A stretch of DNA of 14,066 nucleotides from an uncultured Phycisphaeraceae bacterium (GCA_964532795.1 CAZHJL010000105.1:1-14066), one strand, 5' to 3'; positions 200-13,978 are shown, counted from the stretch's first letter. Notes: generated from the letters alone by a model not told the origin. Translations and numbers: made by a program.

Positions 200-1852
200 T
201 CACGGCTCCTGGTCATCGCTGTCTTTCTCTGCGTCCGGCGCCGATTCTCGAAGCGCCTCGGTCGATGCTGTCGTCGCTCGTCTTTCACCATTGCCTGGCG
301 ATTTGCCGTCGCTCCCGGCGAAACTGGCCAGCGTCTCGGGCAGTTCGACCCCGCCGATATCCTTCATCACCTGCATCATGGGCGGCAGTGTCTTGGCCAG
401 ATTCGTCAGCCAGTTCGCGGTGCTCGAACTGCCATTCTGGTTACTGTCCCAGACGACCACCTTGTCGAACTTGATGTTCGAAATCGCGGCCGACGACGCT
501 TGGACGAGGTTGTCGAAGTGCTCGAGCATCAGCATCTGGAACGCTTCCTGCGCCCCGCCGCAAGCATCGACGATCTCTCGCAGGCCCTGGCCTTTCTTGG
601 CGAGGATCTCGTACTGACCACGGGCTTCCGCGTCGAGCTTCGCAAACAGCGCCGCCGCCTCGCCTTCGGCCTCGATGCGTTGCTTGTTCGCTTCGGCCTC
701 CGCATCGACCTCGATCTTGGCCCTCTGGGCCTTGGCAGGGGCTTCCAGTTCGGCTCGGCGCTCCGCTTCGATGCGCTGGGCTTCAGCCACGGCGGCCTTG
801 GCTTGCGCAAGGTGCTCGGATTCTCGCACCGATGCCTCCGCCCTGACCTTGCTGGTCTCACCCAACTGGTACGCCTCGGCACGCTTGACTTGGAGCGTGG
901 CCTGGGACGCCGCGACATCCGCCTTCGCGACGTTCTCGCCCTCGACGGCCCGCGCATCGGCGTCGGCCACCCGGATGCGCTTTTCGCGATCAGCATCCGC
1001 GATCTGCGCTTCGCGCTGGAAGTTGGCCGTCTTCTCGCCCACCTGCTGTTCCTTGTCCAACTCCGCCACGCGTACCGCCTGGTCGCGCATGGCCTCGCGC
1101 GTGCCGATCGACTGGATCTTCTGCGCGTTGGCGACTTGCACGGCCTTTTCGCGCTCGGCGTCGGCAACCCGGATCGCACCCATCTTCTCGTTGTCGGCAA
1201 CGTCGCCGCGCGCCTTGTTGATCGCTTCGCTGGCGGCCTTCTGCCCGATCGCGTCGATGTAGCCGGATTCATCCGTGATATCCGTGATGTTCACATTGAT
1301 CAGCACAAGGCCGATCTTCCGCAGTTCCGGTTCCAGTGAACTCTGAATATTCGTCAGGAAGCTGTCGCGATCACGGTTGATCTCTTCGATCTGCATCGAG
1401 GCGATCACTTGGCGCAACTGGCCGAAGATGATGTCCTCGGCCTGCTTCATGATCTCGCCGCGGCTGAGCCCCAGCAGGCGGATCGCGGCATTCTGCATGT
1501 ATTCGGGTGATGTGCCGATGGCGACGGTGAACACACTGGGGACATTGACGCGGATGTTCTCGATTGACAGCGCACCGCGCAGGGGGATCTCGATCTGGAT
1601 CGGCTCGAGGCTCAGCCAGGCATAGTCCTGAATGAGCGGGACGACAAATTTCGCGCCGCCCGGCAGGCAGGTGGCTGCCTGGCCGCGGCCGGTCTTGCCG
1701 TAGATCACAAGAATCCGGTTGCTCGGGCACCGCTTGTAACAGCGGGCTAGCAGCATGAGCAGGCTGAGCCCGAGAATGATCACGAGCACGATCAGCAAGA
1801 CGGCCGGCCCGGAAATGGGCAGGTCGACCGCCAGCAGCGGGGCGCTATGCAT
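200..1852 (-). CDS. yqiK: SPFH/band-7 flotillin-family protein (YqiK-like), 550 aa. It has an N-terminal TM helix, an SPFH domain and a long Ala/Glu-rich coiled-coil C-terminus.
   Basis: The 550-aa ORF starts at an ATG whose 8 nt overlap the stop of the upstream NfeD gene (1845-1852). The N-terminus is hydrophobic (LLAVDLPISGPAVLLIVLVIILGLSLLML). The SPFH-like core is followed by a highly repetitive EA-rich coiled coil (…AEAEANKQRIEAEGEAA…), typical of bacterial flotillins. Size and operon partner match E. coli yqiJK. The stop is TGA at 200-202. Confidence 0.85.
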   Translation of the reverse strand: MHSAPLLAVDLPISGPAVLLIVLVIILGLSLLMLLARCYKRCPSNRILVIYGKTGRGQAATCLPGGAKFVVPLIQDYAWLSLEPIQIEIPLRGALSIENIRVNVPSVFTVAIGTSPEYMQNAAIRLLGLSRGEIMKQAEDIIFGQLRQVIASMQIEEINRDRDSFLTNIQSSLEPELRKIGLVLINVNITDITDESGYIDAIGQKAASEAINKARGDVADNEKMGAIRVADAEREKAVQVANAQKIQSIGTREAMRDQAVRVAELDKEQQVGEKTANFQREAQIADADREKRIRVADADARAVEGENVAKADVAASQATLQVKRAEAYQLGETSKVRAEASVRESEHLAQAKAAVAEAQRIEAERRAELEAPAKAQRAKIEVDAEAEANKQRIEAEGEAAALFAKLDAEARGQYEILAKKGQGLREIVDACGGAQEAFQMLMLEHFDNLVQASSAAISNIKFDKVVVWDSNQNGSSSTANWLTNLAKTLPPMMQVMKDIGGVELPETLASFAGSDGKSPGNGERRATTASTEALRESAPDAEKDSDDQEP

Positions 1853-2534
1853 GGTGGGTCCTTTCGCTTTCGAGCACCGGTTCGACGGTGACGGTATCCG
1901 CGGTGACCACCCCGGTCACCACCACTTTGATGCCCGGCACCAGCTTCTCGCCGGGTGTTCGGGCCAGGTATTCCATGGTTCGGTTCTGTAGGTTGAGCTG
2001 TATTTTTCCGGTGCCGCCTTCCTGGCCGGGGATGGTCGTGTAGACCGTTCCGTGCAGGCCCACGGCCCCCGCGATGCGAGGCGTGCCCTCGGCCTTCAAC
2101 CGCAACAGCGCCCGCATCAGGTAGTACACGCCGTACATTGCGCCCGCCGCGGCCGCAACCGCCACCACAATCTGCACCTCCGGCGGCGAACCGGCGGTCT
2201 GCGCTGTCCACCCGGCCAGCCCGAAGAAAGCCAGCGCCGCCACTACCGTGCGGAACGAGAGCACGCGGAAGATCCCCGTGGAATGCTCGTGAACGGCGTG
2301 ATGTGCGTCCGCATCGACATCGAGATCGGTATCCGTCGAGAAATCAGCGTCGGCGTCGGCCATCTCGCCGACCTCGCCCGGCACATCCACGTCCAGCGCC
2401 TCGGCTCCGAAGCCAATGAGCGTCAGCAGAAACTGCACGACAAGTATCGTGCCGCCGACAAGCCCGCAGATGATGAAGACCGTGGTCACGTTTCCGACTC
2501 CCGGCTTAGACCGCCCCAGAGGGGGCCCGCCCAC
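1845..2534 (-). CDS. yqiJ: NfeD-family membrane protein (YqiJ-like, short-form NfeD with C-terminal OB-fold). The annotated start is GTG at 2534; an alternative GTG at 2489 has a better RBS.
   Basis: There are three hydrophobic helices (VTTVFIICGLVGGTILVVQFLL; FRTVVAALAFFGLAGW; IVVAVAAAAGAMYGVYYLM). A C-terminal beta-rich OB-like segment follows (GLHGTVYTTIPGQEGGTGKIQLNLQ…KVVVTGVVTADTVTVEPV). The stop TAG at 1845-1847 overlaps the flotillin ATG, which is the classic NfeD-flotillin operon. Start choice is uncertain: rc of 2487-2489 gives GTG preceded by GGGAG 8 nt upstream. Confidence 0.8.
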   Translation of the reverse strand: MGGPPLGRSKPGVGNVTTVFIICGLVGGTILVVQFLLTLIGFGAEALDVDVPGEVGEMADADADFSTDTDLDVDADAHHAVHEHSTGIFRVLSFRTVVAALAFFGLAGWTAQTAGSPPEVQIVVAVAAAAGAMYGVYYLMRALLRLKAEGTPRIAGAVGLHGTVYTTIPGQEGGTGKIQLNLQNRTMEYLARTPGEKLVPGIKVVVTGVVTADTVTVEPVLESERTHHA

Positions 2535-2793
2535 TGCTCAGGCACAAGATGCACGTGCCCGATTATCGTGAGCGGGTCGCCCGCTGCCAACCCAGCAGGC
2601 AGAATACACATCCAACAGCCCGCCCGCTGCGCCGGAAGTGGGAAAGACGTGGTCGCCCGTTGTATATCTGATACACAGCACTAACCGTGCAACGGGATAG
2701 CGGTTCACCTGTTCACTCTGGCCGCCCGCCACGCCACAACCCCACCCAGAACCGCCCCGAGCATGGCGGCCCCGACACCGAAGCGATGAGAAG

Positions 2794-2866
2794 TGGCCGG
2801 GCTGGGACTCGAACCCAGGACCCACGGCTTAAAAGGCCGCTGCTCTGCCAACTGAGCTACCCGGCC
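2794..2866 (-). tRNA. tRNA-Lys (anticodon UUU), 73 nt, CCA not encoded.
   Basis: Reverse complement reads GGCCGGG-TA-GCTC-AGTTGGCA-GAGC-A-GCGGC-CTTTTAA-GCCGT-GGGTC-CTGGG-TTCGAGT-CCCAG-CCCGGCC-A. This gives a perfect 7-bp acceptor stem, D arm, anticodon stem (one G-U pair), a 7-nt loop with TTT at positions 34-36, and a T-arm with TTCGAGT. Confidence 0.9.
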
Positions 2867-3070: not shown

Positions 3071-3142
3071 TCCCCGATAGCTCAATGGTAGAGCGAGCGG
3101 CTGTTAACCGCTAGGTTGTAGGTTCGAGTCCTACTCGGGGAG
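3071..3142 (+). tRNA. tRNA-Asn (anticodon GUU), 72 nt, CCA not encoded.
   Basis: Reads TCCCCGA-TA-GCTC-AATGGTA-GAGC-G-AGCGG-CTGTTAA-CCGCT-AGGTT-GTAGG-TTCGAGT-CCTAC-TCGGGGA-G. All stems are Watson-Crick, the anticodon loop CTGTTAA gives GTT, and the T-loop is TTCGAGT. It closely resembles canonical bacterial tRNA-Asn. Confidence 0.9.
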
Positions 3143-3146
3143 CTTT

Positions 3147-3181
3147 CCCCAGTCACAAACAAGTGGCTGGGGCTTTCTTTT
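3147..3181 (+). terminator. Rho-independent terminator immediately 3' of tRNA-Asn.
   Basis: ccccagtcac / gtggctgggg form a 10-bp stem (one G-U pair) around the loop aaacaa. The hairpin is followed by cTTTCTTTT. Confidence 0.75.
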
Positions 3182-3413
3182 AGCTGCGGGCGGGTTGCGC
3201 AAGCCGCGTCGTCAACGTCAGTTCCGGCAACCCGTTACGCCGCTGCCGCTCTCGCCGATCCGCCCTGTCCAGTTAAACCCGCCGCCGCTTCGGCCGCACT
3301 TCGCCCGGCGCTCTCAGACTCTCGCCGCTCTCCCGTCCAACGGGTTAACAGACACGTTCGGGGTGGACCCTGCGTGGACCGAAACACCGTCGACCTCGCG
3401 TTCGCCGGACGTT

Positions 3414-3442
3414 TTGCCTAGTCGTGGGGTGTCCGGTAATCT
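3414..3442 (+). promoter_or_regulatory. Candidate sigma70-type promoter for the three-gene operon: TTGCCT, a 17-bp spacer, then TAATCT.
   Basis: The -35 TTGCCT is at 3414-3419 and the -10 TAATCT at 3437-3442 with a 17-bp spacer. It lies ~40 nt upstream of the ATG at 3481, which has its own SD (GGGGGA, 7-nt spacing). Confidence 0.4.
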
Positions 3443-3480
3443 TCACGGTTTACACTGGCGCTACTTTGGGGGATTTGCGC

Positions 3481-4590
3481 ATGGGTTTTTGGCACACGGG
3501 CTATGCCGAGTTCCACGAGGAAGTCGGCTTGGGCGACATTCAGGTCACCGACACCCCGGCACCTCGCTACTGCTGTGATCAGTGCGAAGCCGTTTTTGAT
3601 TCATTGGAGAAGCTTCGAACTCATCGTTTCGAGAAACATCCCATCGAACGCCCCTGCCTGCTAATTCGTGGTGTTGATGTGAACACCCAGCCCTTGGTAA
3701 TCAAGTCACCACTCTCGCCCTCCGACGTAACGGTGTTGTCGACAGAAGAGGTGGTTCTGAACGGGCAGTCACTCGCTTCGAACTCGTTAGGCGAGGCGCT
3801 CTCACGATGCCAATCAGGAACAGCGCGCATTGTTCTTTCGGGCGATTTGGCGCAGACGCCGAGAACCCTCCACTTCATGATCGCCACGCCCGACGACCTG
3901 GCTGGCGTAGAGCAGTCTTTCATGTCCACTGCAGCCGATGGACGGCTTGACCGGCGTGCCATCGAACAGTTCATCAGTGCGGCCAAGCGATTCCCGACCG
4001 CAGAGGCATACTGCGATGGCATCTGCGAGTATCTGTATGGCGTACTGGCCAAGGAGCGTTCCAGCGCCGTGGACGTACCGTACGAGCGATACCGAGACAA
4101 GCTCAATCGTTCGATGGAAGCCCTTCGTGATCTCCATCGTCCTTTAGCGAGACAGATTCTCGGCCTCATTGATTTCAACTTCAATCTGATGCAAAGCGCC
4201 AAGCATCGTGACCCAACCAGCCGCGTTGGCTTTGCGGCTGCACGTCTGCGGGCTTGGGGGAACGGCGACATTGCGCCCGATCCCCGCTCGACCACGCGAC
4301 GAACAGCGATCGATCGTGCATTGACCGACGCTGATACAGAAGCCATTGTCTCTTGGGCATGCCGGGGCCTGACAGATCTGGTTCAGTATGTCAACGATAT
4401 TGATGAGTTCTCGCGCAAACCGCTCGCCGAGTTCGACAAGAGCAAGTGCCATATCATGATGGTTACATTACGCCTTCACATGGGTGACATTGAGGGCGCG
4501 AGGCGGCACGCCAGAGAGCTCTACCACTTGGAGAACCCAGAGCTCTCAGGGCGTGGGCTCGTCAAGCTGATTGAAGAGCGAACGGCCTGA
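3481..4590 (+). CDS. Hypothetical protein (~369 aa) with an N-terminal C2H2-type zinc-finger motif. It is the first gene of the three-gene operon. An upstream in-frame GTG at 3424 would extend it to 388 aa.
   Basis: The long ORF has coding-like composition. ATG 3481 is preceded by GGGGGA at 7-nt spacing. The motif C-x2-C-x12-H-x4-H (CDQCEAVFDSLEKLRTHRFEKH) lies near the N-terminus. The rest is mostly helical with no recognisable catalytic motif. The stop TGA is at 4588-4590. Confidence 0.8.
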   Translation: MGFWHTGYAEFHEEVGLGDIQVTDTPAPRYCCDQCEAVFDSLEKLRTHRFEKHPIERPCLLIRGVDVNTQPLVIKSPLSPSDVTVLSTEEVVLNGQSLASNSLGEALSRCQSGTARIVLSGDLAQTPRTLHFMIATPDDLAGVEQSFMSTAADGRLDRRAIEQFISAAKRFPTAEAYCDGICEYLYGVLAKERSSAVDVPYERYRDKLNRSMEALRDLHRPLARQILGLIDFNFNLMQSAKHRDPTSRVGFAAARLRAWGNGDIAPDPRSTTRRTAIDRALTDADTEAIVSWACRGLTDLVQYVNDIDEFSRKPLAEFDKSKCHIMMVTLRLHMGDIEGARRHARELYHLENPELSGRGLVKLIEERTA

Positions 4591-4612
4591 CCACAAAGGA
4601 ACCATAACAACC

Positions 4613-5794
4613 ATGGGCGACGCGAACAGCATTTCAGGGCATCACGACGAACAGAGCCAACCCACAGATATAGACGGCTCGACGGAGTCTACGCCGAGCC
4701 GGCCCCCGGACGGTCCACCTCGTGACGATGCCTCTTCTGCAGGCGCGACTCCGAAGCGGAAGCCTTCCAATCCTAAAGGGCCGAAATACGAGGCGTTCGA
4801 GGACCTTCTGAGGCATGTCTACTCACGCAAGGGACAGCCAGTCACACTTGCGAAGAAAGATGCTGTGCATCTGGCCGACCAAGCAGTGCCTGACGAACTT
4901 CTGAATGACCTAGTGCCGGAACTGGCGCGGGCGGACCGTGTGCTGGCTGTACCAGCCCAGTTCCTCCTCGCAGGAGTACCGCACCGGCCGATGCTCAAGC
5001 TCTGGCGGCAGATCGAGCGGACCTACTTCATCATGCTGCAGCACCACCCGGGCTCAGCGAGACTGCTTGAGTTGCTGCATGAAGCGCGATCTGCCAACAA
5101 GCCCGCATGGTCCGCCCTCGACGTTGCCACGGATGACAGAGACGTCACGTCGCTACCAGCAGTTGACCCCGACAAGCCTTTGAAGAAGGCCGACCGCCTT
5201 AAGCTGCAACACAATCTGGTGTTCAATGTCGTCGTCTGGCTCAATCAATTCGCTTCGGTGAACACATCCACGATCGTGAGAAAACTCCATAACCAGCAGT
5301 GGTCACATGCGATCGCATCGGTGCGGAAGCCACTGGATCGCCTGAAGCTGTTGCACAAGCTCACAGACTATGCTGCGGCCGGCATGGCATCGTCCGCGTT
5401 CGCAGAGGAGGCACAGGCGCAAACCCAGGCTGCCGAAGATGCGGCACAACGCGAAATGGAAGCTGCCACCGCACTCGCTGAGTCGGAAGAACGCGTGCAG
5501 GCACTGGAGCAGAAAACCCAATTGCTTTCTTCAGACATCCAAGTCCTTCAGACGCAGTTGGAGCAAGCCAAGCAGAAGCACGAGGCCGACATGATTCATG
5601 CGGCAAACGATCTGGAACAGCTTCGTTCGCGCGTCGTTCGGGCGATCGAATCCGAAGTTGATCTTCTTCAGGAAGGGCTCGCGGCCCTAAGGCGCGACCC
5701 TCCGAAGACTCACGTCATGGATGATCACGCCGAACGTGCTATCAATGGCCTAAGGGCCGCAATCAACTCATTGAATGATGGGGGTAACTCATGA
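4613..5794 (+). CDS. Hypothetical protein (~393 aa). It has a Pro/Ser/Asp-rich disordered N-terminus, a helical middle region and a C-terminal coiled coil. It is the second gene of the operon. An alternative TTG start at 4571 overlaps gene 1.
   Basis: ATG 4613 has AAGGA ~12 nt upstream. The ORF runs to TGA 5792-5794, which overlaps the ATG of the next gene (ATGA). The C-terminal ~120 aa are heptad-like (…VQALEQKTQLLSSDIQVLQTQLEQAKQKHEADM…). No J-domain (HPD) or GrpE signature was seen. Confidence 0.75.
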   Translation: MGDANSISGHHDEQSQPTDIDGSTESTPSRPPDGPPRDDASSAGATPKRKPSNPKGPKYEAFEDLLRHVYSRKGQPVTLAKKDAVHLADQAVPDELLNDLVPELARADRVLAVPAQFLLAGVPHRPMLKLWRQIERTYFIMLQHHPGSARLLELLHEARSANKPAWSALDVATDDRDVTSLPAVDPDKPLKKADRLKLQHNLVFNVVVWLNQFASVNTSTIVRKLHNQQWSHAIASVRKPLDRLKLLHKLTDYAAAGMASSAFAEEAQAQTQAAEDAAQREMEAATALAESEERVQALEQKTQLLSSDIQVLQTQLEQAKQKHEADMIHAANDLEQLRSRVVRAIESEVDLLQEGLAALRRDPPKTHVMDDHAERAINGLRAAINSLNDGGNS

Positions 5795-7575
5795 CGACAG
5801 CTGGATTCGATTTCGGGACCACCAACAGCTTGGTGTCACATATCGTCGGGGATCGCGCCATCAGCCATTTCGATAGCCGTGGTCTCCCCATCTCCTCCGT
5901 CGTCTGCTACGAGGGGGGTAACGTCATCGTTGGTCGAGAGGCCAAAGACCGCCTCGAGGACGCGGGCCTTGGCGTTTACGGGAACATAGTGCGGTCACCC
6001 AAAATCCTAATGCAGGATGACTCGATCTACGTCGATGGCGTAGAACGCAGCACAATCGATGTCGTGGCAGATGTGATCAAGGGCGTCAAAGACCAGACGC
6101 TTGCGAGGCGGGCCGGAAGCATGGATACCCTCGACGCAGCCGTCGTCACCATCCCGATCACATTCGAGGGCGAGCGAAGAGCCAAGCTCCGCGAGGCCTT
6201 TGGGCGAGCAGGTATCCGAATCGTTCAGTATGTGCATGAACCACTTGCCGCACTGTACGGCTACTTCCGATCTGCGGGCGGCGTCGAGGAGAACCTTCGT
6301 CGGTACGATCGCCAGCATGTTTTGGTCTTCGACTGGGGTGGCGGAACACTGGACCTCACGCTCTGCCGCATCGAGAACGGCATGATCCTCCAGATTGCCA
6401 ACGATGGCAGCGATGAAGTCGGAGGTGATCGATTCGATGACGCGCTACGCAATGAAGTGGTTCGGCTTGGTCGTAAATCACAGGACGTAACAGAGGGAGC
6501 GTCGGTTCACCCAGACGCGAACGCCCGCCTCCTGCAGCGATGTGAACGCGCAAAGATTGATCTGTCCGAGCGAGATAGTGTCGAGGTGTATGTGGATCAC
6601 TTCTTCCGCGATGTGGCCAATGACGCTCTGGATTTCAAAGTGACTCGCCAGTTCCTTGAGGATGTGACCAAGCCCATCATCGATGCCGGCACCGATCGCA
6701 TCGACCGACTGCTCGAGGCTGCGATGTTGTCCCATCCGCAGATTGGCTTGTGCCTTGCTACTGGCGGCATGCTCCATATGCCTGCCATCCGCTCACGCTT
6801 GCATGAGCGATTCGGACCTCAGCGTGTCTGTGTTCCGGAGTCTGGCGCGGGCGCGATCTCCGTTGGAGCCGCATGGATCGCCCATGACAAGGCCGCTCTG
6901 CGGCTGGCCAAGACGGTCGAGCTTGCCCTTGCGCGGCAGTCATACCTGCCGCTTCTCAAAGCGGATACCCGGATGCCCATGCAAGGAGAAGTGCGCGGTG
7001 ACAACTTCGATCTGTATTGCGTCGATCCGCGTGATGGGTTTGCGAAACTACAGATTGTCTCGCCGAAGCGACCTGGAAGACACGTCCGTCCGAACGACAC
7101 CCGCAAGGTGCTGTCAACGATGACAGTCAATGTGGACAACACGGCCAAGCCGTTCCGCGAGCGCCTTCAGATGCGCGTCGAGGTGGATGACAACCTGATC
7201 CTTCACGCTACAGCCGTATCGCTCATGAACGGACACCATGACCAAGTTGAGATTCACGACCTCGAGTTCTGCATCTCGCTGGGAATGGATGGCACTGATC
7301 GGGCAAAGGACGATGACTCGGAGGCTGAGTCACAGGTGGACGGTGAGCCGCCACCACCGGGCGCAGTGGCACTTCGTCCGAACGTATCCAGCCATGTTGA
7401 GTCCTCGCTCGTGCCGGGCGAACTTTGGTACGAACACCAGCCCCAGGACTTCGATGTCCGGCTGCAGCCGCCGAGGATTCAGGTCGAGGAGCGACTGTAC
7501 TACGAGCCATGCAAGCTATGCGGGCGGCCGTCATACGACCCGCGCTGCAAATGCGTCTACGGAACGATGAAATAG
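5791..7575 (+). CDS. Atypical Hsp70-family (DnaK/HscC-like) ATPase, 594 aa. It has a complete actin-fold nucleotide-binding domain and a beta-sandwich substrate-binding-like domain. There is no helical lid. The C-terminus is a Cys-rich tail (CKLCGRPSYDPRCKC).
   Basis: Hsp70 signature motifs appear in order: FDFGTTNS (phosphate-1), VVTIPITF…EPLAALYGY (connect-1), VFDWGGGTLDLT (phosphate-2), GGDRFDDAL, ERAKIDLS, LATGGMLHMPAIR (adenosine). RVEVDDNLILHATAVS resembles the DnaK SBD beta8 strand. The SD GGGGG sits 6 nt upstream and the start overlaps the upstream stop. Confidence 0.85.
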   Translation: MTTAGFDFGTTNSLVSHIVGDRAISHFDSRGLPISSVVCYEGGNVIVGREAKDRLEDAGLGVYGNIVRSPKILMQDDSIYVDGVERSTIDVVADVIKGVKDQTLARRAGSMDTLDAAVVTIPITFEGERRAKLREAFGRAGIRIVQYVHEPLAALYGYFRSAGGVEENLRRYDRQHVLVFDWGGGTLDLTLCRIENGMILQIANDGSDEVGGDRFDDALRNEVVRLGRKSQDVTEGASVHPDANARLLQRCERAKIDLSERDSVEVYVDHFFRDVANDALDFKVTRQFLEDVTKPIIDAGTDRIDRLLEAAMLSHPQIGLCLATGGMLHMPAIRSRLHERFGPQRVCVPESGAGAISVGAAWIAHDKAALRLAKTVELALARQSYLPLLKADTRMPMQGEVRGDNFDLYCVDPRDGFAKLQIVSPKRPGRHVRPNDTRKVLSTMTVNVDNTAKPFRERLQMRVEVDDNLILHATAVSLMNGHHDQVEIHDLEFCISLGMDGTDRAKDDDSEAESQVDGEPPPPGAVALRPNVSSHVESSLVPGELWYEHQPQDFDVRLQPPRIQVEERLYYEPCKLCGRPSYDPRCKCVYGTMK

Positions 7576-7724
7576 GGCCACTCTGCCACACATGCCCGAG
7601 CCCGTCGCAGTCTCAGCGCCCTGCGACCGTGAGACTGATGCGGGCCGCAATGCGGCCAGTCGGGGCAAGGGGTTACGGCCGGGAGTCTCAAAGTCTCACG
7701 TTTTGGCGGTTCCGTCCCCCAGAC

Positions 7725-8108
7725 CTATGTCCGATCGATCACATCCACATCATCCATCAACTTGAAGCTGCCCTCACTGATATTCACTTGGACCAGTTGT
7801 CGCATCGGCTTGGGCATCGACAGGAACGGTATGAGCAGCTGCAACGCCGAGTCGTGAGCTTCGTCGTTGCTGCCCATCTGGTTGCTCAGTGACGCGAGGA
7901 CCACCAAGGTGTGGGGCGACAGCTTTGGTTCATCCGTTTCCCAAAGCACATCTATCAGAATCTGCATGGGTTCGAGGATGTTGTTGTCGAGGTCCGGAAC
8001 TCTCTTGCCCAGTTGCTCGCCGCCGGTGGTTATCCAGCAATGGATGTCCTCGACGGTGCACTCGTTCTCCAACGGCGGTGGACCTTCCGGTGCTCGGGTC
8101 TCGGTCAT
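7725..8108 (-). CDS. Hypothetical acidic protein, 127 aa. It is convergent with the operon and lies in a lower-GC patch.
   Basis: The ATG start (rc of 8106-8108) and TAG stop bound a protein-like composition (MTETRAPEGPPPLENECTVEDIHCW…). The overlapping plus-strand ORF is Ser/Arg-rich junk. There is no strong SD and no recognisable domain. Confidence 0.5.
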   Translation of the reverse strand: MTETRAPEGPPPLENECTVEDIHCWITTGGEQLGKRVPDLDNNILEPMQILIDVLWETDEPKLSPHTLVVLASLSNQMGSNDEAHDSALQLLIPFLSMPKPMRQLVQVNISEGSFKLMDDVDVIDRT

Positions 8109-8322: not shown

Positions 8323-8565
8323 GTGCCGCGACATAACCGACTTCGCCACGCCAGAATGACGCCAGCGGATCGCCGGCGGGAGATCGTCGCGATCCTGTCC
8401 CATGGTCTTTGCCGCATGCATGATCGCGGGAGTTCACGGGCTGAAGAAACTCTCCGCCCTGCGCGGGAACCCGCTTGCAATCCTGGCGAAAAGGCGGCTC
8501 AGTGTGTCTCGAACGCCGCCCCGCTCGTGGTTAGCGGGGCCGAGAACGACGAGGACGCACGATGA
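8323..8565 (+). CDS. Candidate small ORF (80 aa, GTG start) translationally coupled to the DUF2924 gene. It may be a regulator or excision cofactor.
   Basis: A strong SD GGAAGGAG (8310-8317) sits 5 nt before the GTG. The stop TGA 8563-8565 overlaps the ATG 8562 of the next gene. The sequence is basic/Arg-rich (…MTPADRRREIVAILSHGLCRMHDRG…). An internal ATG at 8356 is an alternative start. Confidence 0.35.
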   Translation: MPRHNRLRHARMTPADRRREIVAILSHGLCRMHDRGSSRAEETLRPAREPACNPGEKAAQCVSNAAPLVVSGAENDEDAR

Positions 8566-9083
8566 GCGACAACACGACCAGAACGGAACTGGCGGCGCTG
8601 CAGAAGATGACGCCGAAGCAGCTTCGGCAGCGATACCAGGAGCTGTACGGCGACGAGGCCCGGTCGGGCAATCGGCTATGGCTGCTGCGGCGCTGTGCCT
8701 GGCGGGTGCAGGCGCTGGCCGAGGGCGACATGACCGAACGGGCGAAGCGGGTACGCGAGCGGGCGCTGGCGATCGCCAACGACGCCGACGTCCGGGTGAT
8801 CCCGCCTCGCACGCCGGTGCCAGAAACAGAACTGCCACGTCGGGTGTCGGCCACCGACCTGAAACCCGATGATCGCCTGCCGATGGCGCACACCGTGCTG
8901 ACACGCGAGTTCAAGGGCAGACGATACGAGGTGACGGTTCTGCCCAATGGCTTCGAGTACGACGGCGAGATGTACCAGAGCCTCAGCGCCGTGGCCCACG
9001 CCATCACCGGCAGCCACTGGAACGGGTATCACTTCTTCAAGGGATCGCTGCTGAATGCGATCAAACTGCAGGGGGCCGAATGA
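8562..9083 (+). CDS. DUF2924-like protein (173 aa), of the kind commonly found immediately upstream of large serine recombinases.
   Basis: The N-terminal pattern LAALQKMTPKQLRQRYQELYGDEARSGNRLWLLRRCAWRVQALAEG and the C-terminal pattern FKGRRYEVTVLPNGFEYDGEMYQSLSAVAHAITGSHWNGYHFF match the remembered DUF2924 family consensus. SD GAGGA is 6 nt upstream. The stop overlaps the recombinase ATG (ATGA at 9080-9083). Confidence 0.7.
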   Translation: MSDNTTRTELAALQKMTPKQLRQRYQELYGDEARSGNRLWLLRRCAWRVQALAEGDMTERAKRVRERALAIANDADVRVIPPRTPVPETELPRRVSATDLKPDDRLPMAHTVLTREFKGRRYEVTVLPNGFEYDGEMYQSLSAVAHAITGSHWNGYHFFKGSLLNAIKLQGAE

Positions 9084-10654
9084 ACAAGTCGAACAGCAAA
9101 CAGGCTGCGGACACACCAACCGTGCGATGTGCCATCTACACCCGCAAGAGTACGGATGAGGGGTTGGAACTGGACTTCAACACGCTAGACGCCCAGCGTG
9201 ACGCGGGCGAGAACTACATCGCCAGCCAGAAGAGTCAGGGCTGGGTGTGCCTGGCCGACCGTTATGACGACGGCGGTTTCTCCGGCGGCACAGTGGATCG
9301 GCCCGCGTTCCAGCGGCTGATGGCCGACGTTGAGGCCGAACGCATCGACTGCATCGTCGTCTACAAGATCGACCGCCTGTCGCGCAGCCTGATGGACTTC
9401 GCCCGGATCATGGAGACGCTGGAACGGCACGGGGTGTCGCTGGTCAGCGTCACGCAGCAGTTCAACACGACCACCAGCATGGGCCGATTGACGCTCAACA
9501 TCCTGCTCAGCTTCGCCCAGTTCGAGCGGGAGATAATCTCCGAGCGCACGCGCGACAAGATCGCCTCAGCGCGGCGCAGGGGCAAATGGACCGGTGGCGC
9601 ACCGGTGCTCGGCTACGACCGCGTGCGGGACAACCGTGGCACGCGGCTGGTCGTCAACGAGGAAGAGGCGAAGCGCGTCCGCACCATCTTCGCCAGGTAC
9701 CTGGAACTGCAGTCCATCCTCCAAACCGTCCACTGGCTGGATGCCCGGGGCTGGCGGAACAAGCAGTACACCACGAGCAAGGGCGTGCCGCGCGGCGGGA
9801 AGGATTTCGACAAGTCCACGCTGCTGAAACTGCTGACCAACCGGCTTTACATCGGGAAGATCGTCCACAACGACCAGTGTTTCGACGGCGAACACGAGGC
9901 GATCGTGGACGAAGATGTGTTCGGCCGCGTGCAGGGCCAGCTCGCCCGCAACCGCAACAGCGGCGGCAAGTATCAGCGGAACAAGTACGGAGCGCTGCTC
10001 AAGGGGCTGGTGCGCTGCCGGCACTGCGGCGCTGGCATGAGCCATCACTACGCCTCGCGTGGCCAGCGCCGGTATCGCTACTACGTGTGCCAGACGGCGC
10101 AGAAGAAGGGCTGGTCATCGTGCCCGTACCCGTCGCTGCCCGCGGGCGAACTGGAACAGTTCGTGGTCGAGCGCATCAAGGAGATGACCGGCGACAGGAA
10201 CCTGCTGAGCGACGTGGTCAGCCGGGCCGGCGAACAGCTCAACCGCGAGACGGAAGACCTGGTGCAGCGCCGCAAGCTGCGCGAGAACCGGGCGCGACGC
10301 ATCAGCGAAGACATCAACGACCTGACCCGCAGCCTCGCCATGCACGCCACGCCTGGTGCAGCGGCCGAACTGGCCCGCCTGCAGGACGAACTGGTCGAGG
10401 TGGAGAAGGAGATCGGTGAACTGAACCGCCGGATCGTGGACCTGCAGCATCGAATGATCGACGAGGATGAGCTGACCGGGGCACTGGAGGCATTCGACCC
10501 GATGTGGGATCGGCTTCGACCGGATGAGCGGGCGCGTCTGATCCACCTGCTGGTGCAGTGCATCGAGTACGACGGGGCGAAAGACGAGATCGCCATCACC
10601 TACCACCCGGCGGGCCTGCAGGCCTTCGCCGAAATGGAGACATGCCATGCCTGA
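9080..10654 (+). CDS. Large serine recombinase (resolvase/invertase catalytic domain + recombinase domain + zinc ribbon + coiled coil), 524 aa.
   Basis: The N-terminal catalytic motif is AIYTRKSTDEG…LDAQRD. The resolvase core reads DCIVVYKIDRLSRSLMDFARIMETLERHGVSLVSV. The recombinase domain includes WTGGAPVLGYD. A zinc-ribbon Cys cluster (CRHCGAGMSHHY…YYVCQTAQKKGWSSC) and a C-terminal coiled coil follow. Confidence 0.92.
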   Translation: MNKSNSKQAADTPTVRCAIYTRKSTDEGLELDFNTLDAQRDAGENYIASQKSQGWVCLADRYDDGGFSGGTVDRPAFQRLMADVEAERIDCIVVYKIDRLSRSLMDFARIMETLERHGVSLVSVTQQFNTTTSMGRLTLNILLSFAQFEREIISERTRDKIASARRRGKWTGGAPVLGYDRVRDNRGTRLVVNEEEAKRVRTIFARYLELQSILQTVHWLDARGWRNKQYTTSKGVPRGGKDFDKSTLLKLLTNRLYIGKIVHNDQCFDGEHEAIVDEDVFGRVQGQLARNRNSGGKYQRNKYGALLKGLVRCRHCGAGMSHHYASRGQRRYRYYVCQTAQKKGWSSCPYPSLPAGELEQFVVERIKEMTGDRNLLSDVVSRAGEQLNRETEDLVQRRKLRENRARRISEDINDLTRSLAMHATPGAAAELARLQDELVEVEKEIGELNRRIVDLQHRMIDEDELTGALEAFDPMWDRLRPDERARLIHLLVQCIEYDGAKDEIAITYHPAGLQAFAEMETCHA

Positions 10655-11084
10655 ACCCCCGGAATCCCCCGCAACAGGAGTCACGCATCGCCATTCGCTC
10701 AAATTCATCCGCGAGCACAACGCCCGTCGGGCCGTGCAGCAGGTCGTCGAGGAAGACCCGGCTGAGATGGAACCCGGCCGGGTGCCGCGCGTCACGCGTC
10801 TGATGGCACTGGCGCTGCGGTTCGAACACCTGCTGCAGCGCGGGGCCGTGCGTGACCAGGCGGAACTGGCCGAACTCGGTCATGTGACCCGGGCGCGGGT
10901 GACGCAGATCATGAATCTGCTCTACCTCGCTCCCGACATCCAAGAAACCATCCTCCAACTACCTCGCATCACGTCGGGCAAAGCCCCGATCACCGAACGC
11001 GACCTGCGACCCATCGCCGCCGAGCCCGCCTGGTCGCAACAGCGGCGTCTGTGGGCCGACCTCGCGGCCCACCTGCCATCTTGA
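10647..11084 (+). CDS. Small DNA-binding protein (145 aa) with a ParB/KorB-like helix-turn-helix. Its start overlaps the recombinase stop.
   Basis: The segment DQAELAELGHVTRARVTQIMNLLYLAPDIQETILQL matches the ParB HTH plus the 'LLxLxPxxQExL' recognition-helix pattern. SD GGAGA is 6 nt upstream of ATG 10647, which overlaps the recombinase TGA (10652-10654). Confidence 0.7.
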   Translation: MPEPPESPATGVTHRHSLKFIREHNARRAVQQVVEEDPAEMEPGRVPRVTRLMALALRFEHLLQRGAVRDQAELAELGHVTRARVTQIMNLLYLAPDIQETILQLPRITSGKAPITERDLRPIAAEPAWSQQRRLWADLAAHLPS

Positions 11085-11287
11085 CAGCGACGTTTCTGTT
11101 CGGCGCATGTTCGGGCAGCCACATCCTCGGTCGCCACCTCGGCGCAAATCTATACCATATCATCCTTTAAGCATAACATCATTTTGGCGCGCCAGTTGCA
11201 GTACGCCCGCTTGGCCCGCGACGGATCGCGGACCGGGGTTTTGATCCATCAACGCCTTTGTTCTGGCCACTTCTGGCCGGGGAAAGG

Positions 11288-13096
11288 ATGCCCGAAGTGG
11301 CCACCAATTTCACGCCGAAACACATCTCCTCACCGCAGCTTTTGGAACACGTCACGCCGCAGGTGCTCCTCCGCTTCCTGAAGAAGTACAAGGAGTACTT
11401 CACCGCAGAAGGCGTAATGCCGACCTCGGCCGACGACATCGACTACGACCGCTTGTCGCTCGTACTGGCGTCGCCAAACGAGGTGATGCCCGCCTACCTC
11501 ATGGCGGACCTGTTCTACTGGGACGAGGTCGCCGAGATGGCCGATATCGAGGACCTCAACGAGATCGCCGCGCGGCAAGGGATCGAATTCGGCGACGAGG
11601 TGACCATCGAGGAGGCCGTGCTGCTCGTCCGGATGCACGCACCGGACGACCTCGAAGACCTTTACGACGTGTATCAGGCTCACGGCCTGCTCCGTAAGAA
11701 GAAGCGATTCCTGTCGTACTTTGCCAAGGTCGACGATCTGCCCGAATGGAAGAAGCCGACTCCCAAGAAAATGTCACAGTTCGCGGCTGAGATGGACGGC
11801 TGGTACGCTGACCAGAAGAAAGGCCGGGGAACGCGCGTCTCGGTGATCGAAAAGGATGATGCGGCCTGGTTCATTGTCCGCCACGGTGGGACGTTCAAGC
11901 GCGAGAATGCCGTGGAGAACGGCGAGCCCAAGCTCGTGTTCTACCGCCCCGAGGCGTATGACCTGCTGATCACCGTCATCACCACCGTGGTCGCGGTGCT
12001 CAAGGTGCTCGGTGCGGTATTGGCGTTCCTCGTCTCGCCCATCGGCCTGGTCATCGCGGCGGTGGCTGCACTAGCCGGTTATCTGATCTACGCCACCGAC
12101 ATCGGCGCGAAATCGCTGCAGTGGCTGGGCAGCCGGTTCCAGGTGCTTAAAGAGGATGCGCTGGCCGCCTACCAGGGCATCGCGGATGCTCTGGCTGCCG
12201 GCGACATAGCCCTGGCCGCGAAGGTGTTGTGGCTGACGCTGAAGATGGAGTGGACGCGCGGTGTGAATTTCCTCGAAAAGGTGTGGCTGAACTTCCGCAA
12301 CTTCTTCATTCGCATCGGCTACGACGCCTTCCACGGCCTGCTGGCGGTCGTCGAAATCGTCTGGCATGCGCTGGAGGTCGGCTGGATCGAGTCGGTGGCG
12401 GTCTTCAAAAAACTCTGGTCGAACCTGGTCGGCTTCTTCTCGCGGCTTTGGCAGAACATGGTCGCCATCGCGCGCAAGGCGTGGCAGTGGATCAAGGGTC
12501 TGTTCAGTGAATCCGCGCGCCAGAGCAGCGACAACGTCAATGCCCGCATCGACGCGGAGCGCGATGTCGCGATCAATCGGATCAATGACGCCGGGGAGCG
12601 GGACCGGGCGCGCGCCGAAGCCGAACGCCAGCGTCGCAGAGATCGGGCCGCATCCCAGCACGAGGCGACGCTGGCTGAGATCGAGCGGCAGAACCTCCAG
12701 AAACACAGCGAACTGGACGCCGAGTACGAACGGCGCATGGCCGAGAACGAAGAAGACCTCGAGCAGGCGCGGAAGGAATGGCAGGACGCCATCGACGAAG
12801 CGCGCAATAAGCGCGAGGCGCGTGAACGGGACGACTCCGGCCCCGAGGGACTGCAGAGTGCCGACGACGTGATCGACAAAGCCCGCGATGCGCTGGCCGG
12901 GCTGGGTGACATCGGCGACCTGGTCGAGCAGGAAGCGGCAAAGATCGGCGTGCGCGGCACGTTCAATGCCGCTGCCATTCAGGGCCTGGTCTCCGGCAGC
13001 GCTGCCGACCGCACCGCCAAGGCGACCGAGGAAACCGCCAAGAACACCAAGAAACTGGTCACCGCCGCCCAGACCGGCGGCCTGACCTTCGCGTAA
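11288..13096 (+). CDS. Large membrane-associated protein (~602-612 aa). It has a soluble N-domain, two TM helices, Trp-rich amphipathic repeats, a charged coiled coil and a Gly/Ala-rich C-terminus. It is tape-measure-protein-like (tentative). Alternative starts are TTG 11258 and GTG 11297.
   Basis: The ORF is long and codon-biased. The hydrophobic hairpin is VITTVVAVLKVLGAVLAFLVSPIGLVIAAVAALAGYLIY. Repeated ~25-aa W/F-rich units follow (KVWLNFRNFFIRIGYDAF…, VEIVWHALEVGWIESVAVFKKLW, SNLVGFFSRLWQNMVAIARKAWQWIKGLF). An E/R-rich coiled coil comes next. The product assignment is low-confidence. Confidence 0.75.
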   Translation: MPEVATNFTPKHISSPQLLEHVTPQVLLRFLKKYKEYFTAEGVMPTSADDIDYDRLSLVLASPNEVMPAYLMADLFYWDEVAEMADIEDLNEIAARQGIEFGDEVTIEEAVLLVRMHAPDDLEDLYDVYQAHGLLRKKKRFLSYFAKVDDLPEWKKPTPKKMSQFAAEMDGWYADQKKGRGTRVSVIEKDDAAWFIVRHGGTFKRENAVENGEPKLVFYRPEAYDLLITVITTVVAVLKVLGAVLAFLVSPIGLVIAAVAALAGYLIYATDIGAKSLQWLGSRFQVLKEDALAAYQGIADALAAGDIALAAKVLWLTLKMEWTRGVNFLEKVWLNFRNFFIRIGYDAFHGLLAVVEIVWHALEVGWIESVAVFKKLWSNLVGFFSRLWQNMVAIARKAWQWIKGLFSESARQSSDNVNARIDAERDVAINRINDAGERDRARAEAERQRRRDRAASQHEATLAEIERQNLQKHSELDAEYERRMAENEEDLEQARKEWQDAIDEARNKREARERDDSGPEGLQSADDVIDKARDALAGLGDIGDLVEQEAAKIGVRGTFNAAAIQGLVSGSAADRTAKATEETAKNTKKLVTAAQTGGLTFA

Positions 13097-13138: not shown

Positions 13139-13978
13139 ATGCCGATTACCTGCACTGAAAGCCCCGACTCCCGCCAGTACACCGAAGGCGAATCGGCGGA
13201 ACTGACGTTCACCATCCGAGGCACCGCCGACGAAGCAGCGGCGCTGTCGTCGCTCAACGCCACGGCCCCGTCCATCTTCAACGGACTGGTGCGGCAGCCG
13301 TCCACCGTCGAGCCGGTGCATATCGACGCGACCAATTCCGGGGGCTGCATCTGGACCGGCACCGCGCGATACGCGCCATTCGAGAACCAGGAGCCGGAGA
13401 CCGGCGACTCGGTCTTCAGCTTCGACACCGGTGGCGGCACGCAGCACATCACACAGAGCCGGTCCACCATCGCCAGTTATCCCGCCCCCGGCGTGCCCGC
13501 CGCACCCGACTTCAAGGGTGCGATCGGTGTCACGCACGACAGCGTCGAAGGCGTGGACATCACGATTCCCGTCTACACCTTCTCCGAGACGCACTACCTG
13601 CCCGGGTCCACGGTGACCAATGCGTACAAAGGCGCGCTGTTTCAACTGACCGGCAAGGTCAACACGGGGAGCTTCCGGGGGCTGGCGGCGGGCGAATGCC
13701 TGTTCCTCGGCGCATCGGGTTCACGCCGCGTTCCTGAAGCGGATCCTTCCGGGGGCGATTGGGAGATCACCTTCCGCTTCGCCGGCTCGCCGAACGTGAC
13801 CGGCCTGATGGTCGGCGACATCGGTCCCATCGACAAGAAGGGCTGGGAATACCTCTGGCTGCGCTATGAGGACCAGGAGGACGCGGCCGCCACGGCGCTG
13901 GTCAAGCGACCCGTCGCCGCCTACGTGGAGCAGGTCTACGAGGCGGGTGATTTCTCGACACTTGGGATCGGCACGTGA
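13139..13978 (+). CDS. Hypothetical beta-rich protein, 279 aa. It may be a structural or tail-like partner of the preceding gene.
   Basis: SD GGAGG is 5 nt upstream of the ATG. The composition is Gly/Thr/Ser-rich (TFTIRGTADEAAAL…GDWEITFRFAGSPNVTGLMVGD) with no catalytic motifs. It directly follows the 612-aa gene, 42 nt after its stop. Confidence 0.65.
   Translation: MPITCTESPDSRQYTEGESAELTFTIRGTADEAAALSSLNATAPSIFNGLVRQPSTVEPVHIDATNSGGCIWTGTARYAPFENQEPETGDSVFSFDTGGGTQHITQSRSTIASYPAPGVPAAPDFKGAIGVTHDSVEGVDITIPVYTFSETHYLPGSTVTNAYKGALFQLTGKVNTGSFRGLAAGECLFLGASGSRRVPEADPSGGDWEITFRFAGSPNVTGLMVGDIGPIDKKGWEYLWLRYEDQEDAAATALVKRPVAAYVEQVYEAGDFSTLGIGT

Follow-up and report, generated by a model that had tools for sequence, protein, structure and literature searches.

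In our study of a 14,066-nucleotide stretch of DNA from an uncultured Phycisphaeraceae bacterium (GCA_964532795.1 CAZHJL010000105.1:1-14066; the whole stretch, at its full length, is called the window below), we identified a cassette of three genes, here named A, B, and C, which we present as a mobile, undescribed candidate system against phages or other mobile genetic elements, organized around an Hsp70-type motor. On balance, we regard this triad as probably a defence or conflict module, because its genomic context, its mobility, and the co-evolution of its members point in that direction. The three open reading frames (ORFs) are confirmed in the window as co-directional on the plus strand, and they are not chance ORFs, since each has many full-length homologues. 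An initial annotation had described them as a tightly linked operon with junctions at 4588/4613 and at an ATGA at 5791-5794, which the sequence bears out:

3481-4590, plus strand: gene A, 369 amino acids, with its stop codon at 4588-4590
4613-5794, plus strand: gene B, 393 amino acids
5791-5794, plus strand: ATGA, in which the stop codon of B overlaps the start codon of C
5791-7575, plus strand: gene C, 594 amino acids, an Hsp70-type ATPase

Gene A had been taken to begin at 3414 (or 3424), and this start was not sustained: we place it at the ATG at 3481, because the near-invariant motif MGFWHTGYxEFHE always stands at the N-terminus of the protein in its homologues and a GGGGGA ribosome-binding site lies ahead of it. 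Gene B starts at the ATG at 4613, 22 nucleotides past the stop codon of A, with AAAGGAA 12 nucleotides upstream, and the ATGA overlap indicates a likely translational coupling of B and C.

The triad is conserved as a unit. More than 1,800 relatives of C are present in the databases, with full-length identities of 52-60% across phyla. Our locus set comprises the best 80 of at least 514 relatives confirmed by tblastn (one genome per GTDB species) and nine others (these loci carry L numbers below); the conservation of junctions and residues was counted over 70 loci, and the neighbouring genes over 79 non-redundant loci. Using hmmsearch with profiles of the three proteins, we found the order A-B-C in every fetched locus with sufficient sequence and none of them in a recognized chaperone-operon context, so the possibility that only the Hsp70-like gene is conserved, in ordinary chaperone surroundings, did not hold. 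The B profile was silent in seven of the most divergent loci, where approximately 1 kb separates A from C. The distance from the stop of B to the start of C is -4 in 25 of the 70 loci and +1 to +4 in another 33, and a possible start of B overlaps the stop of A by 4 nucleotides in 30 of them. A, B, and C co-evolve: their pairwise identity matrices correlate with r = 0.93-0.95. The carriers span more than 10 phyla and include Planctomycetota (Phycisphaerae), Cyanobacteria, Binatia, Geobacter, Acidobacteriota, Verrucomicrobiota, Bacteroidota (Bacteroidia), Pseudomonadota (Gamma-, Beta-, and Alphaproteobacteria), and many Actinomycetota (Streptomyces, Mycobacterium, Nocardia, Arthrobacter). On the conjugative plasmid pA of Paenarthrobacter ureafaciens, gene A is split by an IS3 element (L007:5391-7845); we therefore rejected this plasmid as a variant without A. 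In actinobacterial triads, a fourth co-directional gene (442-500 amino acids, no Pfam match) directly follows C (L007:10763-12103, L077:11777-13129, and six other actinobacterial loci); the window does not have it.

Special attention was given to the genes that flank the triad, of which up to 10 kb were fetched on each side; the flanking genes were clustered, and Pfam was run on the cluster representatives. As a result, we identified genes of type 1 bacteriophage exclusion (BREX) systems in 22 of the 79 loci. BrxL is a neighbour in 19 loci, PglX in 16, BrxC in 9, and PglZ in 15, the last label resting on a faint PglZ match in L008 and on PADLOC PglZ matches, since the representative of its cluster (cluster 2) has no Pfam match. 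According to gene-order maps, the triad stands co-directionally between pglX and pglZ in approximately 14 loci (among them L014, L036, L039, L055, L063, L071, L084, L086, and L088, with the triad at approximately 7.5-11.8 kb of each), and in other BREX loci it directly follows brxL or adjoins brxR. In some genomes the triad shares the slot between pglX and pglZ with GmrSD or an AAA_21 pair, and in others GmrSD or an AAA_21 pair occupies this same slot, which appears to receive passenger defence modules in general. Further recurrent neighbours are dynamin-PLD, GmrSD, SNF2-NOV, NERD-UvrD, and AAA_21 proteins, N6 methyltransferases, and kinases, and the PADLOC matches among 131 immediate neighbours include PglZ, HEC-05, HEC-06, Orf5, and SspE; in total, recurrent defence-type neighbours, one or more per locus, were found in 42 of the 79 loci. 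For example, the triad lies near BrxR/BrxB/BrxC in Methylomonas, between GmrSD and PglZ in Massilia, next to two DUF262 genes, a GIY-YIG nuclease, a helicase, and a DNA methyltransferase on the Paenarthrobacter plasmid, and near a Panacea toxin-antitoxin gene in a Phycisphaerales prophage.

The mobility of the triad is seen among its closest relatives, since proteins 83-85% identical to those of the window occupy different islands: one such relative adjoins a serine recombinase, ParB genes, and a SIR2 protein, and another adjoins DndB. In the window, the triad shares its stretch with a serine-recombinase module, as had been described, with a DUF2924 gene (8562-9083) and the recombinase (9080-10654) downstream of it. 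The two move independently, given that a serine recombinase lies near the triad in only 3 of the 79 loci; the module of the window is common only to one Phycisphaerales metagenome-assembled genome (MAG) (L005:9810-12297, 50-67% identity), where its orientation relative to the triad is reversed. The 50,697 records of the phage collection that we searched contain no copy of the triad, and two of 72,556 plasmid records carry it. From the neighbourhood counts, the triad mostly adjoins defence genes and sits in mobile islands, and its presence in defence islands, which the initial annotation had anticipated, is supported by the 22 BREX loci, the PADLOC matches of its neighbours, and the relatives beside SIR2 and DndB.

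Dynamin-like GTPases were also found directly beside the triad in approximately 10 loci, which may reflect island co-location or a functional link. A dynamin-PLD protein, with a fused PLD-like MIT_C domain, takes position -1 in L008, L021, L026, L030, and L047, a GTPase pair lies upstream of the triad in L054, L057, L058, and L064, and a dynamin-like fragment (L017:7123-7425) matches LeoA/LeoBC.

The identification of the third gene product as an Hsp70-fold ATPase is borne out by its matches to the Hsp70 family of Pfam (PF00012, E = 5.5e-37) and to DnaK nucleotide-binding domains in the PDB (E = 1e-44); its NCBIfam scores of 117-123 bits do not reach the equivalog level, for which the DnaK and HscA cut-offs are 648-822. 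The nucleotide-binding domain (NBD) of C extends from residue 1 to approximately residue 365 and contains the motifs FDFGTTNS, VVTIP, HEPLAALYG, VFDWGGGTLDLT, GGDxFD, and ATGGMxNMP. Its catalytic residues D7, K71, E150, D181, T186, and D188, which we take, by alignment with DnaK, to correspond to D8, K70, E171, D194, T199, and D201 of DnaK, are kept in at least 93% of the 70 loci. The NBD is followed, at approximately residues 366-500, by a conserved linker, LxLAKxVE, and by a region collinear with the beta-sandwich of the DnaK substrate-binding domain (SBD): in tblastn searches, residues 5-490 of C align to DnaK genes unbroken, and the segment ERLELDVxIDDNLIL aligns with what we take to be PQIEVTFDIDADGIL of E. 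coli DnaK. In the same comparison, the C profile covers only the NBD (3-346) of another Hsp70, encoded in a Phycisphaeraceae MAG (L012). For the helical lid, no alignment of C to DnaK was found past approximately residue 490; instead, an acidic variable linker (approximately residues 500-525, with approximately 14% identity) leads to a conserved C-terminal domain (approximately residues 526-594) that contains the four cysteines C574, C577, C586, and C588 (Cys4). The earlier description of C as lidless is thus supported at the level of sequence, with the Cys4 domain apparently in place of the helical lid, and it needs two additions: the SBD-beta-like region is kept, and the Cys4 domain has been gained. 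Within the main clade, the SBD-beta-like region shows approximately 52% identity, which is unusually conserved for a generic clamp and suggests a fixed ligand. C is apparently an active Hsp70 ATPase with a substrate clamp. The Hsp70 gene of the Phycisphaeraceae MAG mentioned above (L012:1584-3539) looks conventional, with 651 amino acids and a C-terminus of lid length, and it precedes gene A of that locus by approximately 0.5 kb.

Protein A opens with the invariant peptide MGFWHTGYAEFHE, which is predicted with low confidence in the AlphaFold2 (AF2) model. The C2H2 zinc finger that had been proposed for the first protein is corroborated by the family profile, which matches zinc fingers in the PDB (E = 3e-6), and by residues C32, C35, H48, and H53, kept in at least 93% of the 70 loci; the match of this single finger to Pfam zf-C2H2_6 (E = 7e-5) lies below the gathering score. 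In the AF2 model, which has a pLDDT (predicted local distance difference test) of 90, approximately 20 low-confidence N-terminal residues precede the finger, and these are followed by a small beta-rich domain (approximately residues 59-133) and by an all-helical alpha-solenoid (approximately residues 137-369) similar to tetratricopeptide repeats (TPR). The likeness of this helical domain to TPR co-chaperones is no better than its likeness to other TPR proteins. The A family comprises 806 representatives at 50% clustering, and its complete members nearly all have approximately 365-380 amino acids; effector fusions were sought in the family and discarded, since its sole 639-residue member adds just a low-complexity tail. 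A second N-terminal type, ...ITDAVDPGNAGGSVLIPE..., replaces MGFWHTGYxEFHE in nine loci (L027, L039, L050, L055, L059, L063, L065, L067, and L071), which belong to Halomonas relatives, Deefgea, and Methylophilaceae.

Protein B consists of a disordered, low-complexity N-terminus (residues 1-53), a helical domain (62-235), and one long single helix of approximately 120 residues (240-361), the latter two as modelled by AF2. This helix is presumed to form a coiled coil, in agreement with the coiled-coil protein that had been announced as the product of the second gene, and beyond it lie the turn RDPPKTH and a final helix (368-388). B is the fastest-evolving of the three proteins, with a mean identity of 0.23, compared with 0.33 for A and 0.51 for C. 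We also considered B as a HEPN RNase, given that the string RRDPPKxH fits the R-x5-H pattern, and rejected it: the string is conserved in one clade only and not in actinobacterial or Halomonas members, Pfam gave no HEPN match in B, and the AF2 model, instead of the four-helix bundle of HEPN proteins, has a helix-turn-helix where the coiled coil ends.

Hsp70 proteins usually work with a J-protein and a nucleotide-exchange factor. Like the Hsp70s of the DnaK-DnaJ-GrpE and HscA-HscB machines, C has an Hsp70 NBD, the catalytic residues, the linker, and a DnaK-collinear SBD-beta-like region. The triad differs from these canonical machines in three respects: C, judged by its sequence, has no helical lid and carries a Cys4 C-terminal domain instead; in place of a J-protein and GrpE, it is accompanied by the C2H2/TPR-like protein A and the coiled-coil protein B; and the triad is mobile, patchy in its distribution, and linked to defence islands. 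Pfam scans of A and B gave no match to J-domain or GrpE models at the thresholds used, and the HPD tripeptide is found at none of the 70 loci in A and at one in B. The lack of HPD and of a GrpE-like signature, which the initial annotation had remarked upon, is thus confirmed, and on the same grounds we reject the alternative that A and B form a divergent pair of J-protein and nucleotide-exchange factor.

Among predicted defence systems, one of the closest comparisons is with the coiled-coil nuclease tandem (CoCoNuT) systems. According to their description (PMC11090510), type III CoCoNuTs combine an Hsp70-like protein, CnuD, which has degenerate Walker A-like motifs, with McrBC homologues, and a linkage of CoCoNuTs to BREX superoperons was noted. 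The two share an Hsp70-like NBD/SBD protein that is found with coiled-coil and zinc-binding components in a predicted defence setting; they differ in their ATP motifs, conserved in C and degenerate in CnuD, a comparison in which CnuD is represented by its description only. No McrB-like GTPase (NxD) and no McrC/DUF2357 protein was found among the ORFs of the window (Pfam, PADLOC, and NCBIfam, E <= 0.1), nor a HEPN domain or HEAT repeats (Pfam and PADLOC). We consequently rejected the triad as a CoCoNuT, as it has no McrB, McrC, HEPN, or HEAT component. The DO-GTPase/GAP1 conflict systems (Kaur et al. 2020, PMC7159879), whose constant core is a pair of DO-GTPases with a GAP1 protein, include HSP70-family proteins, some of them without a peptide-binding domain, and come with GrpE and DnaJ-fused FNIII proteins. 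These are likewise predicted conflict systems with an HSP70, and paired GTPases adjoin the triad in a few Streptomyces loci; however, paired DO-GTPases are absent from the window, and GTPase pairs accompany the triad in only four loci, all of Streptomyces. The triad was not assigned to these systems because neither their defining components nor GrpE and the DnaJ-fused FNIII proteins belong to the conserved triad or occur in the window, GAP1 itself not having been searched for.

The position of the triad in approximately 14 loci is also the one taken by passengers between pglX and pglZ, such as the GmrSD-type BrxU (PMC8565348). These passengers belong to unrelated protein families, and the triad differs from them in having no nuclease domain and in lying mostly outside BREX loci; in the window, no brxA, brxB, brxC, pglX, pglZ, or brxL gene was found (Pfam and PADLOC). 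Toxin-antitoxin-chaperone (TAC) modules join a SecB-like chaperone with recognizable partners of the HigB/HigA type. The triad resembles them in being a three-gene operon whose dedicated chaperone could act on a partner by way of a disordered segment. It differs from them in that its chaperone is of Hsp70 type and its partners gave no toxin fold. The literature search returned no description of the triad, subscription-only papers lying outside the search; within the searched literature, an Hsp70 is paired with phage defence only in the CoCoNuT work, and look-ups in a recent BREX survey, the DefensePredictor paper, and a 2022 Sorek-lab preprint gave no mention of the triad. Together with the lack of a significant match in PADLOC v2, this agrees with the earlier statement that the combination was not recognized in any named system.

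The reading of the triad as an accessory conflict or defence cassette, already suggested by the initial annotation, is supported by the neighbourhoods described above, its function being read from context. It is important to note that several observations weigh against this reading. PADLOC-DB v2.0.0 gave no match for C; for A it gave only ZorC, at a marginal E = 0.016, and the matches for B, to coiled-coil regions of JetC, LmuB, and other proteins, are likewise marginal (E >= 0.0017); we read all of these as noise. No effector domain was recognized in A, B, or C, which is unusual for defence systems. By clustering, 37 of the 79 loci have no recurrent defence-type neighbour; these have integrases and transposases within housekeeping flanks, as well as single defence genes, for example HipA, AbiEii, or a C5 methylase. 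Adjacency to defence genes can also mark anti-defence, regulatory, or addiction genes. Finally, the two N-terminal types of A showed no regional signal of covariation with regions of C, in a test confounded by phylogeny. Because A, B, and C yielded no domain of a nuclease, protease, NADase, or pore, the output of the triad would probably be non-enzymatic, by binding or sequestration, or would be exerted through host factors.

If the triad is a defence module, we infer its defence function, the formation of a complex, the roles of the parts, and the trigger as follows. C would be both motor and switch: its Hsp70-type ATPase is catalytically complete, a conserved interdomain linker would join it to a substrate clamp resembling SBD-beta, and an acidic linker with a Cys4 domain, presumably zinc-binding, would replace the helical lid. 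A and B might stand in for the J-protein and the exchange factor while being unrelated to either. A would act as an adaptor, with its C2H2 finger for contact with nucleic acid or protein and its TPR-like solenoid for peptide binding; its flexible, invariant N-terminal peptide looks like a docking segment and would be the obvious candidate ligand of the SBD-beta clamp, a proposal to which the covariation test lends no support. B would serve as an extended, probably dimeric scaffold built on its coiled coil. Contact with an invader would most plausibly involve its disordered and helical parts, which evolve fast: B is the fastest-evolving of the three proteins, and its variable disordered region fits a component that encounters invading elements. 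In an uninfected cell, the ATPase would clamp a conserved peptide of its partner and keep A and B in a latent complex. An infection cue, possibly a chaperone-engaging or B-binding protein of the phage, would alter the nucleotide cycle or displace the partner, and the released complex would then capture or sequester a phage or host component or trigger growth arrest. We consider this clamp-and-release scheme, in the form specified here, rather unlikely to be correct. Chaperone-linked sensing of infection has a precedent, since DnaJ is reported to mediate phage sensing by bNACHT25 (PMC12169576).

Other explanations of the triad must be weighed against the same evidence. Its co-directional placement between pglX and pglZ in approximately 14 loci and the adjoining BREX genes in 22 of the 79, with Massilia and Methylomonas as examples, would fit an accessory or guard of BREX that remodels or assembles type 1 BREX complexes, or a second line of defence triggered by phage inhibition of BREX. 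Such a second-line role would resemble that of PrrC, which is embedded in a type I restriction locus. Nevertheless, 57 of the 79 loci, with up to 10 kb fetched on each side, have no BREX gene, and the window and its closest relatives have none either; the presence of GmrSD or an AAA_21 pair in the same slot elsewhere suggests a general hotspot for passengers, and look-ups in the recent BREX survey gave no mention of the triad. We thus consider a BREX guard unlikely. An addiction module of the TAC kind, in which A or B is a toxin or antitoxin stabilized by the dedicated Hsp70 and the whole maintains mobile elements, would account for the tricistronic, translationally coupled operon, for the conserved disordered termini of both A and B, and for the triads found in prophages, islands, and one conjugative plasmid. 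Given that no toxin or antitoxin fold was recognized, that the triad is rare on plasmids (two of 72,556) and absent from the phage collection, and that chromosomal BREX operons, not mobile elements in need of stabilization, make up many of the loci, we find this explanation quite unlikely.

The conjunction of the triad with a serine-recombinase module and phage genes, in the window and in close relatives, and the possible DNA-binding finger of A leave room for some other role borne by the element: anti-defence, control of superinfection by a prophage, or actin-like segregation by an ATPase of the acetate and sugar kinase/Hsc70/actin (ASKHA) superfamily with a DNA-binding adaptor. We regard such a role as very unlikely, since C is of Hsp70 type with an SBD-beta-like region and not ParM-like, most loci lie outside elements that need partition, and the 50,697 phage records hold no copy; the idea of a partition system in particular was discarded because no centromere-like iterated repeats were found upstream. 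Highly improbable, in our view, is a specialized but otherwise ordinary chaperone operon, in which A and B are non-homologous substitutes for the J-protein and nucleotide-exchange factor and serve proteostasis or a single client. It would explain why C retains an intact Hsp70 catalytic core, the linker, and the SBD-beta-like region, but not the patchy horizontal distribution, the near-identical triads in unrelated contexts, or the neighbours, which are defence genes and integrases and not heat-shock or Fe-S genes; the lack of a DnaJ or GrpE match and of an HPD motif in A, and NCBIfam scores far under the DnaK and HscA cut-offs, also speak against it.

As far as the searched literature and PADLOC v2 reach, the triad is a widespread and undescribed system, unusual in its mechanism. 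To our knowledge, bacterial immune systems nearly always end in a recognizable effector, which may be a nuclease, a depleter of NAD or nucleotides, a membrane disruptor, or a protease, whereas the only enzyme of the triad, which is kept in at least 80 species and more than 10 phyla, is an Hsp70-type ATPase. If the triad protects against phages, a mechanism of protein remodelling would be added to prokaryotic immunity, together with a tractable model of Hsp70 cycles driven by non-canonical cofactors. More tentatively, and we hold this to be doubtful, the triad could found a chaperone-based form of immunity, in which a lidless Hsp70 with its own partners would sense protein-level cues and stop phages by ATP-driven capture or remodelling, with no nuclease, NADase, or pore, and would also be a frequent back-up inside BREX loci. 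The mechanism of BREX is still debated, and the repeated insertion of the triad between pglX and pglZ could illuminate its back-up or guarding. With regard to annotation, hundreds of entries named "Hsp70 family protein" and "C2H2-type zinc finger protein" would be parts of one system.

The remaining features of the window are the following:

200-1852, minus strand: flotillin-like gene
1845-2534, minus strand: second gene, next to the flotillin-like gene
2793-2866, minus strand: tRNA-Lys(UUU)
3071-3143, plus strand: tRNA-Asn(GUU), 337 nucleotides upstream of gene A
3144-3480, plus strand: non-coding region from tRNA-Asn to gene A, the presumed promoter site
3147-3172: terminator-like hairpin of tRNA-Asn, with a T-run
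7600-7645, plus strand: imperfect hairpin with 16-nucleotide arms and no T-run, 25 nucleotides past the stop codon of C
7725-8108, minus strand: ORF of 127 amino acids, between the triad and the recombinase module
8562-9083: DUF2924 gene, downstream of the triad
9080-10654: large serine recombinase, downstream of the triad
10647-11084: small recombinase-associated ORF (phrog_14161)
11258-13096: tape-measure-like gene, matching several PHROG tail families
13139-13978: unassigned ORF of 279 amino acids

The tRNA gene that the initial annotation had placed ahead of the triad is tRNA-Asn. It diverges from tRNA-Lys, 204 nucleotides away, and of the two only tRNA-Asn has a clear terminator-like hairpin; because of this hairpin, we consider the triad to be a separate transcription unit. 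No sigma-70-like promoter above the expectation from shuffled sequences was found in 3180-3480, and no iterated repeats were found upstream of gene A; an Rfam scan of the window returned the two tRNAs and nothing else. The hairpin at 7600-7645 is a possible end of the operon. The ORF at 7725-8108 may not be a real gene, having no match in Pfam, PHROG, or NCBIfam and no homologue in any fetched locus. The lower GC content that had been reported for the triad was also recovered, with 0.56-0.60 across 3501-8000 compared with 0.61-0.67 in the flanks. On the right side of the window, the DUF2924 gene, the large serine recombinase, and the small ORF (8562-11084) constitute a conserved three-gene integration module, and the tape-measure-like gene and the 279-residue ORF that follow suggest that this part of the window is a prophage.

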